64,000 nt of DNA from Octopus vulgaris (GCA_951406725.2 OX597829.1:38812001-38876000), one strand, 5' to 3'; counted from the first letter of the stretch, positions 32,358-60,018 are shown. The notes: generated by a model not told the origin, from the sequence alone. Numbers and translations: made by a program.

Positions 32358-33523
32358 TCTAGGGTTAGGTTTAGGGTTAGGGTAACTATGTCTGGAACTC
32401 ATTCTAACAGTCTATTATGCTGAGCTACTAATTTGCGGGTAATGTAAACACTGACATTGGCAGTCAAGTAGTGGTGGTGAGAGAAAAACAGAGCACACAG
32501 GCACATGTGCACACACACATGCACACACTCATGCATGCACACACACATACACACATGCATGCATGCACACACACATGCACATACATATACACACACTCAT
32601 GCATGCACACACACTCATAGATGCACACATACACACACATGTGTGTATATATATATATATATATATATATATATACATACATATGCACAAACACACACAC
32701 ACACACAACAGGCTTCCACACAGTTCCCATGTATCAAATCTGTTCTTGCAAGGATTTGGTCAACCCAGGACTATAGTAGAAAGCATTTGCCCAGGATGCC
32801 ATGCAATGAGATTGAACCTGAACCCACAAGTTGCAAAGTGAGCATCATAAACCACACAACCATTCCTGAAGTTTATTCTGTTTTACACTCAAAAACCTAC
32901 ATATCAATTTTGGGGGATTATTTATTTCTGTATCGTATTCTTTTATTCTACTCTTTAAGAAAGATTTTAAAAAATTTACTCTGTTTTATTTCATCTTTAT
33001 ATAATATACGCTTTACAGTAAATCATTTTTTTTTTTAAATTATTTTCTAATTATCACTATCAGTTTCAGGGTGAAGAATTTCAGCATGGTTTACTTTTCT
33101 CTTCAGTATTTTTAAAACACTAAATGTGTGTTACTAATACTCTCAAGGGTGTGCTATGAGACTACACTTCCGTATCTGTTGATATCTGCCGCACATTTTT
33201 TCTCTGCTGTTTGTAATAAGGAAATCTTATAGATGTATTAGTACATACATGTGTGAGCAAAAAATGATGACAGATTTATTATTAATCATGGAGAATAGTG
33301 CACCAGTTCAAATGAAGTTAAATATCAAATTCTTTTCTTACTTATTAACAAATATTATCCCCTTTTGAAAGTTATATATATATATATATAAGTAGTTTTA
33401 GAGACAGAACCACCTTCAACTCAATCAACACTGAAAGATTTTATAACCGACCACTCCATAAAATGTTAAATATTAAATCTTATACTAACTATATCTATTC
33501 TGAATTCCATATTTTCCGTTTAT

Positions 33524-33624
33524 AAGACTACACGCATTTCGTGAAAGTACGTCGGTTTGATTAGATACGAGGTATCTAGTTTCAATACTTAATCGGGTCG
33601 ACGTACTCCCAATCTTCAGGTTTA
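33524..33624 (-). ncRNA. Hammerhead motif with long stem II
   Basis: AAAC-CUGAAGA-uUGGGAGUACGUCG...CGACGUACUUUCAc-GAAA-UGCGUG-UA-GUCU (one stem I mismatch). Confidence 0.75.
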
Positions 33625-34062
33625 GATTCCTCAACATTTTTCACTACCCCTACCTCTTATATACCTCCACGATACTCTATATCTTTAGTATAATCTTACT
33701 TAACATATACAAATGAATAGAAATACAAATAATAAATTGAAATAGTAACCGAATATTAAAAACTTAAGGAGTAACAATTTAAGGAATAAAAATTCAAGGA
33801 ATAAACATTTAAGGAAAAAAAATTCAAAGAGAAAAAAGTACAAGTAAAAATTACGAATAAAAGTTATGAATAACGAATAAAGAATTACGAATAAACAAAT
33901 ACGAAATAAAAATGAAATTATAAGGAAATAAAAATAGAGACGAAAATAAAACAAATGTTAACTTATCTTATCTTTCCTCGGCGAAAATTAAGCATAGCTA
34001 CATCTTGCAAATAAAGTAAAATCCGCGTTTGATAATACCTATGTATAGGAGGTACTACAAAT

Positions 34063-34360
34063 AAATGAAAGGCAAAGTCGACTGCGGCAGAATTTAAAGC
34101 CAGAACGTAAAGACAGACGAAATACCTATTTCTTTACTACCCACAAGGGGCTAAACACAGAGAGGACAAACAAGGACAGAAAAACGGATTAAGTCGATTA
34201 TATCAACCCCAGTGCGCAACTGGTACTTATTTAATCGACCCTGAAAGGATGAAAGGCAAAGTCGACCTCGGTGGAATTTGAACTCAGAACGTAAATACAG
34301 ACGAAATACTGCTAAGCATTTCGCCCAGCGTGTTAACGATTCTGCCAGTTCGTCGGCCTA
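34063..34360 (-). mobile_element. SINE family B (about 1.3 units)
   Basis: Reverse complement of the 14982 family. Confidence 0.85.
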
Positions 34361-34514
34361 CAGGGAGAAAAATATTAAACAATAGTGAGTGAGAAAGAAA
34401 CGTGGAGGGAGGTTTTGGGATGTGCTAGAAACAGCCAGATATCCGTTTAATTACACATTTTCCTCTGAAATTATCAACAATTTTTTTTAAAACCGAAAAT
34501 GTTTCTCTCACTGG

Positions 34515-35233
34515 CAGGGGTTGTAAAAAATTAATTGTAATATATTGATCCAATTGATTGATTAGAGTTGTACTGCCAATTAAATAATTGATTGCTACCA
34601 TATCAATTAATTGCAGTTAATTGCAACATTGTCAGAGTTCAAAATCATAAACTGACTGATTTTTGTTACCAATATCAAGAATCTTGGCACGTTTCTTCAG
34701 CTCAGCAGCTTAGCTTTTAATGATTTTCGGCAATACTCAACACCAATGAATTTAAAAATGCAATTGTTTCTTTCTGCAAGTCAATCGCGCTTTCTGGGAT
34801 TCAGAAATCTGCAATCGTTCAGAAATCTACAATCGTTTCTGAACTTTTACTATATTAGAACATTTTAATCGTGCTACTCGCTTAAGAAACTCTTTCAATT
34901 AAAGACCTTCAATTTACTTGTTTTCCAACTAATGTACAATGTAAAGTGTATACGATTATTGTTCCTTATTCTAAATCAACAAAATTGAACTTTGAACGTT
35001 TTCTGATAATAAAATTTTTTGAAACCATAAGACGTGCCATTTATTTTCCTATCATTTTGGCGCTTATCTAAATCGAAGCTAACACTCCTAAATATTTTTT
35101 TTTTTTTTATGTTCGGCAAAATAATTGACAATTAATTGCAATGATTGATTGGCACGTATCCCAATTAAAATTAATTAATTGCTCGGAAAATAATTGATTG
35201 GAAAGGTTCCAATCAATTATTTACAACCCCCTA
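34515..35233. mobile_element. hAT-type MITE
   Basis: CAGGGGTTGTAA...TTACAACCCCCTA; 8-bp TSD CTCACTGG / CTCACGGG; subterminal AATTG repeats. Confidence 0.85.
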
Positions 35234-35477
35234 CTCACGGGTTTTAAGTGTGTAGTGAAAAAAAAATGGTCAAAATCGTTTCGCACTGGGGTGGTGAGGG
35301 AGCGGCGGGAGTGTAAAAATTAAAATTTTTCAAAATATTTTACTTTTTCTTTCCTGAAAAAATACCACACATCTACCGACTTCGGGGAAAAACATTGAAA
35401 AAAATCCCCATCAAAATGGACGCAATCATAACCTTCACACGGTCCATACCACGACGTCAGACTCTCTAAGATCAAAA

Positions 35478-57342: not shown

Positions 57343-57701
57343 TAAGAATAAAGTTTCTAAAATGGATAGAGAAATTCAAAGAGTTGCTTTGGTTTAATGG
57401 CAGTATGTTACTCATGTCTACATAAGGTATAGGTTCAACTCCAATGAGCAGCCTTTGACCTTCTCTGACAAAAAGGGTTCTTCATCCTAATTTATACATG
57501 CTATTGTATGTGCATCATTCTGTTTTCTTCTTTGTATGTAACACATTATATTGTTTTCCAACTAATCCATGACTAATGGATGATAAATATCTTCTTATAA
57601 ATACCATATTTCATGTATCTTAAATGAGTTGTATATCCAGTAGTTAATGTGGAAACTCTCAGTAACCTCAGTACTACAATAGAGATACATACATACATAT
57701 A

Positions 57702-58006
57702 TGTGGAGGCGCAATGGCCCACTGGTTAGGGCAGCGGACTTGCGGTTGTAGGATCGCAGTTTCGATTCCCAGACCGGGCGTTGTGAGTGTTTATTGAGCG
57801 AAAACACCTAAAGCTCCACGAGGCTCCGATAGGGGGTGGTGGCGGTCCCTGCTGTAGTCTTTCGCCACAACTTTCACTCTTTCTTCTGTTGGCCTACTCG
57901 CTTAGCCAGTGGGGTGGCGTCATTTGAAGGCTAAAACAATGCGAAGTGCATTGTTACCAGCGATGTGTAACAACATCTGATAGCCTGCTCGGTCACAGTG
58001 ATCACA
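57702..58006 (+). mobile_element. SINE family C (tail type 1)
   Basis: tRNA head tggaggcgcaatggccc..tggttagggcagcggact..gtttcgattccc. Confidence 0.9.
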
Positions 58007-58025
58007 TTGACATACATATATATAT

Positions 58026-58505
58026 TAGCTCATGCCACCCGAAACACATCAAAATAAATATCCCATTCAATTTGGCAAAAAGGATTCGCACAATAGTGTC
58101 TGATAGAACTACTCAGGACCTTCGTCTTCAAGACCTCAAAACAATGCTTACTGAAAGACAATATCCACCCTCACTTATAGATGAGGGAATTAAATGTGCC
58201 AAACAATTAGACATAAAAACACTAAAAACAACAAAACATAACACCATACCTCATCTCAAAACACTACTATTTATATCAACATACAACCCCAGAAACAGTG
58301 AGGCATTCAACACTATTGTGCAAAATCTCCCTTTACTAACTAGAGATCCAAAAATGAATGACATCCTGAAAACACACAAACTCATCAAATGCAAAAAACA
58401 AGACAAATCGCTAAAGAGTCTACTAACAAATGCAAAGCTTTACAAAACAACCGTGAAACCAACGGTTAAAAAATGTGGACACCCAAGCTGTGGAACCTGC
58501 CCCAA
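58026..58505 (+). pseudogene. PLE (Neptune-like) fragment: RT thumb and Cys-rich linker, open frame
   Basis: SSCHPKHIKINIPFNLAKRIRTIVSD...ERQYP...FISTYNP...CGHPSCGTCP. Confidence 0.88.
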
Positions 58506-58970
58506 AACCGATTGATATATATTAAAGATTATATTAAAACTATGTAAAGTGTGTGTATTTTCCATTTTTAAATTTCTTTTATATATATTACAACTCACCA
58601 CGTGGGGATATTTGAAATTCCTCCTTTTCTGTTACTACTACTACTATATATATATATATATATATATATATATATATATATATAATTAATATTAATATTA
58701 GAGAAGTTATTTCTGAGTTCACTGGAGAGAGAAGTTCAATTTAGTGGTTCTAAAATGAATTACTCACTGTATTATATACATATAAATAGATTGGTTTAAG
58801 AGACAGAATCACCCTCAAGCTACTCAATCATCATTGAATGACATTATCCACAATAGGTACATATAGGACTAAATGTTAAAATTATCAAAATTAATACCTA
58901 CGATTCTTATTCCAAATTATCAAAATTAATACCTTCAATTCTTATTGCAAATCATATACTTTACATTATT

Positions 58971-59075
58971 TAGACTATGCGCATTTCATGACAACATATT
59001 CCTCGATATTGCTGAAATAGAATGTTTCTATACAATACCATATTAATACAAATATATTGCCAATCTTCAGGTCTA
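58971..59075 (-). ncRNA. Hammerhead motif with long stem II
   Basis: UAGAC-CUGAAGA-uUGGCAAUAUAUU...AAUAUGUUGUCAu-GAAA-UGCGCA-UA-GUCUA; stem III AUGCGCAU is a perfect palindrome. Confidence 0.82.
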
Positions 59076-60018
59076 TCTTATATAAACTTATTTTGCTATT
59101 TACATCGTATATTAAGACATGACAAACTAAAATTATATAACTAGAAGTTGTTGGAATAATTTAACTTTAGTAAATGATGAACAGAAATGTGGAATAAAAG
59201 TAGGAAAAAGAAATGTTAGTAAAGAGAAATGTTAACTTATCTGTATGATAATTTTCTCTCCATGAATTAAACATGGCTACCAGCAATTGTACAATCCAAC
59301 ATTGAGAGCTATTTTGTAGGGGAGATAATTCTTATTAACATGTATTTTCTTAAAATGTATTTTCTATTATTTATAATAATAGTAAATCAGGAGAAGCCAG
59401 AAGTGAGTGTATGATAGGAATAGTCTAATTTTTTTTCTGGTTAATTTAATTTATTTTCATGTTAACTTTGATAAATAATAAATTTCTAGGTCAATTACTC
59501 AACATATAATTAAAAAATTTTTTTAATATTTTGAAATATGTTAAAGTCAGTAAAATTAGTAAAAATCAGTAAAAATCTAATTTTTTATTATTTTTATAAT
59601 TATAATACAATTAATATATATTGATTATACTATTATTCTTAAAATTGATGTTATTCTTAAACTTGAGTTTCTAAATTAAGATTAAAAGTTTAGAATAATA
59701 CCTCCTAATATTATACTATCGATTTTTATTAAGAAACTAAAATATCTGAAATTAGAAGTTAATTAAATATTATCTTACATTTATATATAAATAAGTAGAT
59801 TTATTCTAGTTATACTAAATGATAAAATATTATTATACATTATATCTAATTATTATGATTAAAATTTATTTGATTTAAAATTAGAACACCCACGTTTAAA
59901 TGAGAATGAATATTGCTTCTCAGTATCAATAAATATTACCTCTGTTCCTGATATATATATATATACTGAGAAGAAATCCTACAGAACAGATGTTATTTTA
60001 ACAAGATACATCTTGTGT

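Follow-up and report, generated by a model that had tools for sequence, protein, structure and literature searches.

In a 64,000-nt stretch of the Octopus vulgaris genome (hereafter the window, to which all positions refer), we characterized two related repeat units, Unit 1 (U1) and Unit 2 (U2), both read on the minus strand, each of which carries a type I hammerhead, a probable self-cleaving ribozyme, with a stem II insert of 72 or 76 nt. The best explanation, to which we assign a probability of about 0.72, is that U1 and U2 are the 5’-truncated 3’ ends, that is, pseudo-long terminal repeat (pLTR) or 3’ untranslated region (UTR) sequences, of two diverged subfamilies of one lineage of Penelope-like elements (PLEs), endowed with a dimer-type hammerhead in which stem II has grown into a long rod. 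The structure in both units is real and sits on an ordinary catalytic core; what is new is how large stem II is, roughly threefold its normal size, whereas the core, the U·Y junction and the dimer-type stem III are already known from PLE hammerheads. The units and their parts, all on the minus strand, are as follows.

33391..34062, minus strand: U1, the probable 5’-truncated 3’ end of a PLE-like element, without tail
33945..34062, minus strand: conserved 5’ block of U1, which holds the anchor motif described in the initial annotation; aligned to U2 59215-59340, with 0/1000 shuffles as good
33650..33944, minus strand: U-rich variable body of U1, with 15-nt tandem repeats at 33754-33831
33524..33624, minus strand: type I hammerhead of U1 (UAAAC, CUGAAGA, 72-nt insert, GAAA, AUGCGUGU, A, GUCUU)
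33541..33612, minus strand: stem II insert of U1, 72 nt, with a 13-pair stem (33611-33599 / 33554-33542) and a 44-nt apical domain containing a hairpin at 33578-33562
33400..33419, minus strand: conserved 3’-terminal motif of U1
58690..59414, minus strand: U2, the 3’ end of a member of a multi-copy family, with depth in 30/30 bins in each of the sequencing runs X1, X2 and X3
59341..59950, minus strand: upstream sequence of U2, 18% GC, reaching (TA)n 59951-59964, in which family sequence is shown only to 59414
59215..59340, minus strand: conserved 5’ block of U2
58971..59075, minus strand: type I hammerhead of U2 (UAGAC, CUGAAGA, 76-nt insert, GAAA, AUGCGCAU, A, GUCUA)
58988..59063, minus strand: stem II insert of U2, 76 nt, with a 13-pair stem (59062-59050 / 59001-58989) and a 48-nt apical domain containing an extra helix and a hairpin at 59031-59017
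58799..58818, minus strand: conserved 3’-terminal motif of U2, beyond which loose ends of family contigs lie at 58776-58782
58690..58775, minus strand: optional tail of U2, ~85 nt, with a weak hairpin; adjoins (TA)n 58645-58684 and aligns to the tail of a further relative, U3 (0/1000)

The catalytic core common to both units, as proposed in the initial annotation, was confirmed on the minus strand. U1 has CUGAAGA at 33619-33613 and GAAA at 33540-33537, a U·C junction and the stem III sequence AUGCGUGU, and U2 has CUGAAGA at 59070-59064 and GAAA at 58987-58984, a U·U junction and the palindromic stem III AUGCGCAU. A full hammerhead descriptor matched the window at 2 places and none of 300 locally shuffled versions of it, and both units possess the CUGANGA + GAAA core and the U-H site that define the minimal type I PLE hammerhead: a GUA triplet in U1, with the cut predicted after 33529, and an AUA triplet in U2, with the cut predicted after 58976, both of these triplets being natural (PMC1636495). 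The G10.1-C11.1 closing pair is absent from both units, being replaced by the U·C or U·U just mentioned, and a natural U10.1·U11.1 variant is on record (PMC3088659).

The two ribozymes differ in their state of preservation. In U2, stem I (59075-59071 / 58975-58971) is paired at 5/5 positions, whereas in U1 (33624-33620 / 33528-33524) it is paired at 3/5, with A·C and U·U mismatches, one of them at the third pair. The calculated self-duplex of stem III amounts to -10.5 kcal/mol in U2, -10.3 in U3 and a weak -5.3 in U1. Because of its broken stem I and weak stem III duplex, U1 is probably a decayed copy; its minimum free energy fold also differs from a hammerhead. The proposal that both units keep the hammerhead fold thus holds for U2 and only in part for U1.

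General searches did not recover these ribozymes. Rfam models failed to detect the hammerheads of U1 and U2 in focused scans, and neither was among the 150 of 172 window matches listed, which were mostly microsatellite. A covariance model trained on U1 and U2 detected no further full copy in the window, its other matches being at 49394-49446 (E 0.0006) and 49816-49910 (E 0.13). Pattern scans for the hammerhead gave 0 matches in metagenome contigs in one scan and 0 in viral contigs; the sole match of another metagenome-contig scan (L001), which lacks stem II and stem I, was judged by eye to be due to chance.

Evidence of a maintained structure comes from stem II. In both units, the first and last letters of the insert are opposed as a mismatch, next to which comes an unbroken helix of 13 pairs, G-U included, whose pairing probabilities are 0.78-1.0, a length reached by shuffled inserts in 0 and 30 of 200,000 trials; the 12-13-bp stem capping a large insert that had been reported initially is therefore present in each unit. 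The accompanying view that the two stems are unrelated and entirely rewritten did not survive: the arms are identical at 7/13 and 6/13 positions (13/26 letters), with 9 transitions and 4 transversions between them, and the inserts align (4/1000 shuffles as good), as does their apical part without the arms (5/1000). Judged by these alignments, the stems II of U1 and U2 are homologous, and their difference is best described as ordinary compensatory divergence of one ancestral helix. Between the units, 6 of the 13 pairs are invariant, 1 changed on one side and 6 on both sides, and none is broken, which supports structural conservation. When the partners were slid by 1-3 columns as a control, only 29-55% of positions were paired, and 13 random substitutions kept all stem II pairs in 58 and 68 of 200,000 trials. 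Restricted to pairs 1-10, there are 4 two-sided changes, and the null keeps all ten pairs in 1443 and 1405 of 200,000 trials (about 0.7%). An inner hairpin with the outer arms UAGA/UCUA occurs in both apical domains; although first reported for U1 only, it is found at the same place in U2 as AUAGAA/UUCUAU (59031-59017), together with the further helix. Stems of 13 bp with 44-48 nt at the apex fall outside the published descriptor of PLE hammerheads, which specifies a stem II of 3-7 bp with a 3-10-nt loop (PMC4209133).

The units are also related outside the ribozyme. In local alignments evaluated against 1000 dinucleotide shuffles, the 5’ block, the hammerhead region and the 3’ terminus of U1 and U2 were each matched by 0/1000 shuffles, so that the alignment beyond the core which the initial annotation had posed as a check was obtained for both the 5’ block and the 3’ terminus. 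The U-rich bodies (341/1000) and the stretches after the ribozyme (74/1000) aligned no better than chance. The shared terminus and anchor are located where they had been reported, and each motif occurs exactly twice in the window, the anchor at 33953-33968 + 33986-34001 in U1 and at 59227-59242 + 59265-59280 in U2. Much of the length difference between the units is due to a 35-nt tandem duplication after the U2 ribozyme (58879-58948) and the 15-nt minisatellite in the U1 body (33754-33831). On its 3’ side, U1 ends in (TA)n (33373-33390), and its other side adjoins an abundant short repeat at 34065. The boundaries first given for U2, 58790-59290, proved too narrow, as this unit extends from ~58690, with the tail, to at least 59414. 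The tail hairpin is weakly supported (z -0.4 in U2 and -2.0 in U3; 2/18 pairs covary). An alternative interpretation of 58690-58775 as the start of a separate element’s open reading frame (ORF) was dropped, given that the stretch is a tail aligning to 44304-44385 in U3 (0/1000).

To place U2 among its relatives, contigs from 4 of the 24 listed sequencing runs were aligned to its span (58690-59420) at 80% likeness, the family of U1 lying outside this sample. Runs X1-X3 are of DNA type and bear two species labels, and X5 is guessed to be RNA. The three DNA-type runs yielded 894, 881 and 601 aligned contigs and X5 yielded 24, counts that do not represent copy number. Most of these contigs are 90-99% alike, which makes U2 one of many dispersed copies. 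Among the 40 listed of 99 variant positions, none falls in CUGAAGA, GAAA, U16.1 or A17, and within stem II pairs 1-10 only 58990 varies (0-0.4% in X1-X3, one contig in X5). In stem III, the family departs from U2 on both sides of pair 15.2-16.2 (in X1-X3, 74-88% of depth has 58978 T>C and 77-85% has 58983 A>G), and the two differences together yield another perfect palindrome. A change at 59026 in the inner hairpin converts A-U to G-U. At the top of the stem, 59052, 59050 and 59047 differ from U2 in 87-98% of depth; because of these majority letters, U2 pairs 11-13 are probably private to that copy or in another register, barring partner changes outside the listed variants, and only pairs 1-10 are secure. 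The expectation that stem II pairing would be kept across copies was thus borne out, among the listed variants, for pairs 1-10 and probably not for pairs 11-13.

The contigs also bear on the ends and joints of the copies. Loose contig ends cluster at 58776-58782, where the flanks are varied and partly microsatellite-like; other contigs continue to 58690, and several, 88-90% identical, bridge 58780. Of the 34 joints, the 15 listed include opposite-strand ones at four different places. A loose end at 59340 in run X5 leads into the beginning of an oppositely oriented hammerhead core, so that two family copies meet head-to-head there. Single X5 contigs show A>G at 58914, 58923, 58924, 59132 and 59140, changes nearly absent from the three DNA-type runs, which would fit either A-to-I editing, in a transcript of the plus strand, or the mere sampling of a different copy.

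Further relatives in the window consist of 3’ ends in several arrangements, listed here with their strands.

43960..44404, both strands: U3, a minus-strand copy 5’-truncated inside stem II, head-to-head with an inverted plus-strand copy
10040-10230 and 10330-10557 (within 10040..10557), plus strand: two further U3-type 3’ ends with tails, with a short inversion in each
46626..46915, inverted pair: U4, two 3’ ends with a tail on one arm only and (TA)n on both sides, too short for a hammerhead
23158..23260, minus strand: U5, a tailless 3’ end of U4 type, next to (TA)n 23132-23157

The minus-strand copy of U3 keeps the 3’ half of the hammerhead (UAGCCAU GAA ACACGUGU C GUUAU at 44156-44133), and its inverted plus-strand partner carries the tail and ends in (TA)n. 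The resemblance of the U3 terminal block to U1 and U2 is weaker, with 9 and 13 of 1000 shuffles as good. U4 and U5, which share the terminal motif, were found with a profile of U3-type ends that did not include them (E 7e-8 to 2e-5, with high composition bias). Peptide-like similarity among the termini, on either strand, was unconvincing. The tail is present in U2, in the three U3 copies and on one U4 arm, and absent from U1, U5 and the inverted arms. A (TA)6+ tract adjoins 6 of the 9 3’ ends, such tracts making up 1768 of the 64,000 bases. Inverted 5’-truncated partner copies occur at U3, at U4 and in family contigs, and none at U1 and U2 themselves.

All three traits, namely inverted partners truncated at the 5’ side, a tail on some ends and insertion into (TA)n, have been described for PLEs (PMC8557442), and in the element PAc the tail lies between two internal reverse transcriptase (RT) start sites and the hammerhead requires the element’s protein (PMC11167929). 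The PLE link put forward initially is accordingly supported by the insertion layout (inversions, tail and (TA)n) and not by protein, and we class the units as functioning in the manner of PLE 3’ ends, short of proven membership. There are other PLE remnants near the units in the window. One, at 58015-58503 (plus strand), is a Neptune-type fragment with thumb, linker and CxxxxCxxC, 77% identical to P0001; it lies on the strand opposite U2, separated by (TA)n and without a shown link to it. Another, at 40486-40690 (plus strand), is a weak C-terminal endonuclease remnant of a Neptune-type PLE (E 0.1-0.3).

Searches for coding sequence around the units agreed with the initial observation that no ORF is evident. 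With a threshold of at least 40 aa stop-to-stop, no long frame covers either unit, the longest being 85 aa (low-complexity) over U1 and 61 aa over U2. Pfam matched 0/9 frames, a weak test given that the library also missed the clear Neptune-type ORF. Upstream of U2, phmmer of one frame gave 0 matches and a word search of another 0/96 candidates, a third being tested against Pfam only. The tblastn comparison with PLE proteins that the initial annotation had suggested, made with 3 Neptune-type proteins as queries, returned no match at U1 or U2, and no Hydra-type ORF is linked to either. Absence of an ORF is expected because the copies are truncated and autonomous PLEs can have AT-rich 3’ UTRs of ~1 kb. 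The stretch at 59341-59950 could possibly be part of such a long 3’ UTR; its interpretation as a mitochondrial insert was unsupported, the frames reaching at most 54 aa under table 5.

Several observations weigh against assigning the units to the PLEs with a conserved stem II. Neither unit has an associated RT or endonuclease sequence, whether within the truncated copies or upstream of them, PLEs being characterized by an ORF with a telomerase-like RT and a GIY-YIG endonuclease. No tandem pLTR arrangement was found in the window or among the 15 listed of 34 contig joints, and the tail, at ~85 nt, exceeds the published 30-40. On the structural side, the covariation of the stem comes from two sequences and the structure was read off the same two, stem I of U1 is only 3/5 paired, and the family majority letters turn U2 pair 11 into an A·A mismatch among the 40/99 variants listed. 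Finally, the stem III positions 58978 and 58983 are both CpG positions and unphased, so that CpG decay could explain both changes.

If the units are PLE 3’ ends, a plausible sequence of events can be outlined. An active master copy would be transcribed, and in the transcript the 10-13-bp stem II, for which the fold is computed and covariation is observed, would join CUGAAGA and GAAA across the long insert, with stem I (5 bp) sealing the junction. A pair of ribozymes, located in tandem pLTRs or on two transcripts, would then associate through stem III and be cut after N-U-H, a site predicted by analogy with other PLE hammerheads. Dimer pairing is suggested because stem III is too short within one RNA and yet self-complementary, a property seen in three subfamilies (weakly in U1, and in U2 and U3). 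With so long a stem II, the usual contact between loop I and loop II is unlikely, and hence cleavage would probably be slow and aided by the element’s protein, as in PAc. The apical rod most likely would serve as a folding scaffold or protein-binding site rather than in catalysis. A PLE RT/GIY-YIG protein, acting in cis or in trans, would nick (TA)n DNA and start cDNA synthesis either 110-160 nt beyond the cut site or ~85 nt farther along. Two start sites, combined with the copying itself, may account for the layout observed, namely ends with and without a tail, truncation at the 5’ side and inverted partners. Most genomic copies would be dead, probably including U1 with its broken stem I.

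A possible but distinctly less probable alternative, which overlaps with the preferred interpretation, is a non-autonomous ORF-less family of the SINE (short interspersed nuclear element) or retrozyme kind, that would have arisen from a PLE pLTR, measure about 0.7-1.3 kb and lack a coding master, being copied in trans by a PLE protein and having its RNA trimmed by the ribozyme. Such a family would fit the lack of an ORF over 1.26 kb of U2, the conserved 5’ block that in both units is set off from the ribozyme by a body of free length, and the several family contigs that end at 59341, although family sequence continues past this point, to at least 59414. ORF-less hammerhead elements derived from PLEs are known, and these non-LTR retrozymes (LTR, long terminal repeat) resemble the units in being non-coding and AT-rich with a type I hammerhead (PMC7229834; bioRxiv 10.64898/2026.07.22.740005), the axolotl retrozyme HHR_Amex2 even having the U·U mismatch at the base of helix II seen in U2. 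However, the published ones are tandem 150-450-bp repeats with mostly canonical hammerheads and, as a class, abundant linear and circular RNAs, whereas the units are longer, single dispersed copies without head-to-tail tandem and with PLE-type inversions and tail. Moreover, Naiad_Obim and Naiad_Ovul show that AT-rich 3’ UTRs of ~1 kb occur in autonomous PLEs (PMC8557442).

We consider it improbable that the pairing of stem II reflects hairpin correction at the DNA level (quasi-palindrome template switching) or AT-biased drift, the hammerhead being a relic. The broken stem I of U1 fits such a history, as does the preponderance of transitions (9 of 13 differences), and a null with 90% transitions keeps all pairs in about 1090 of 200,000 trials (about 0.5%). 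Yet G-U pairs, which are mismatches in DNA, are kept, the presence of one at pair 3 in U1 as well as in U2 suggesting that the pairing is that of RNA and not of DNA; the change from CG/CG to UA/UA at pairs 9-10 needs four changes; and the core letters are identical in U1 and U2, with GAAA and a palindromic stem III kept in U3, while the neighboring bodies no longer align. A fold-back or miniature inverted-repeat (MITE-type) DNA transposon, carrying long terminal inverted repeats and a hammerhead-like sequence by chance, is very unlikely despite the long inverted repeats in (TA)n formed by U3 and U4, since U1, U2 and U5 are single-armed, so that terminal inverted repeats are not fixed on every copy, the arms are asymmetric with a tail on one side only, and inversion points differ among copies, that of U3 lying inside stem II.

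Close counterparts among known ribozymes are the minimal type I hammerheads that PLEs of metazoans carry (Cervera & de la Peña 2014, PMC4209133), with which U1 and U2 share CUGANGA, GAAA, a palindromic stem III, U-H and the dimer-type design, a short stem I (incompletely paired in U1), U-rich upstream sequence, an occurrence mostly as solitary truncated copies, and high sequence variability with compensatory changes, such compensatory variation in PLE hammerheads having been reported already in 2014. They differ in that helix II of the published ribozymes has 7-8 bp at the larger end and is closed by G10.1-C11.1, as opposed to 10-13 bp, a structured apical domain of 44-48 nt and a U·C or U·U junction here. 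This junction recurs in the hammerheads of Hydra-clade PLEs (Craig et al. 2021, PMC8557442, File S2), with U·U or U·C in 15/26 rows and, by our count, U·Y followed by U-A and G-C, as in the units, in 11/26. These elements also resemble the units in that the ribozyme follows a U-rich UTR and is some 100-200 nt away from the 3’ end, and in their preference for (TA)n, but their stems II have 3-7 bp with 3-10-nt loops, and the Hydra-1_Obim hammerhead differs in sequence.

Long spacers between the core halves, comparable to those of U1 and U2, occur in PLE-X1_sMoe and PLE-X1_sTam (PMC8557442), the former with 9 bp and a 35-nt loop, and in the ‘HHR_half_core’ of eight Naiads in the same paper the halves lie 35-50 nt apart, compared with 72-76 nt, covarying and with an inner hairpin, in our units. 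The diagnostic motifs of the units gave no 3’-end match in the published Naiad, Chlamys or Hydra consensi consulted from that paper, and identification with the published octopus Naiads was dropped, the 3’ ends of Naiad_Obim, Naiad_Ovul and Naiad_Omin differing by eye; Naiads combine an N-terminal GIY-YIG with a CxC motif and a C-terminal RT. In the split hammerheads of rodent lectin mRNAs (PMC2920678), the core parts are likewise separated by a long stretch; there, it is the enzyme strand and the substrate strand within host mRNAs that the insert holds apart, with tertiary contacts retained, whereas in the units it is a paired stem II rod within a repeat. The longest PLE stem II insert in the literature compared is 53 nt, and published descriptors allow about 26 nt. 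Within that literature, including the parts consulted of PMC6765202 and PMC10085705, we found neither a PLE hammerhead with an insert >70 nt nor the family of U2, Repbase/Dfam and the relaxed Terminon descriptors being outside the comparison. An octopus repeat annotation that includes PLEs (PMC13282606) contains neither ‘ribozyme’ nor ‘hammerhead’ in its main text.

The window, which is microsatellite-rich animal genomic DNA with long interspersed nuclear element (LINE) and transposase remnants, harbors several other hammerheads. One at 49819-49905 (minus strand), a second long-insert case from a different lineage than the units, has a 56-nt stem II insert, a 7-bp stem, a G-C junction and the palindromic ACAUGUGU, and lies downstream of degenerate ORF remnants at 50060-50860 (minus strand) that by eye resemble Hydra-clade PLE proteins; the ORF at 50450-50857 gave no match as the query of a protein search. 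A compact minimal hammerhead at 49399-49443 (plus strand) has the palindromic stem III AGUAUACU and a 5-bp stem I, and another at 38925-38987 (plus strand) has a 31-nt insert and G10.1-C11.1. A decayed copy of the latter, with CCGAAGA, adjoins U5 at 22965-23030 (plus strand), and its stem III motif recurs at 22868-22879 (minus strand) and in a palindrome at 23449-23529. A long telomere-like array of TAACCC/TAACCT-type repeats with strong GC skew occupies 8415-9920. The minus-strand stretches 19176-21058, 10862-11619, 11707-12738, 21095-22106 and 60323-60739 are, from their motifs, what we take to be remnants of RTE-/CR1-like LINEs and mariner-like transposases.

A multi-copy, covarying stem II of 72-76 nt escapes both the published descriptors and Rfam. 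Whole PLE clades are said to lack hammerheads on the strength of short-spacer descriptors with 7-17 nt between the core halves (PMC8557442), and published ribozyme counts can be too low because a stem II of the U1/U2 type is invisible to such searches. A simple wider descriptor is now available for re-testing the ‘half-core’ cases, and the units offer a natural test of hammerhead function without contact between loop I and loop II. Rather speculatively, and with odds that we regard as low, the units could mark the termini of a PLE lineage that is currently counted among those without ribozyme (Naiad-like and with an extended AT-rich UTR), or else of an ORF-less class, as yet undescribed and dependent on PLEs, in which the conserved stem II domain has a job of its own, as a pre-miRNA-sized rod that is bound by the RT or by host dsRNA enzymes (ADAR, Drosha/Dicer) and switches cleavage. 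Should this be true, long-stem-II hammerheads would be a common class that has been hidden from short-spacer descriptors.

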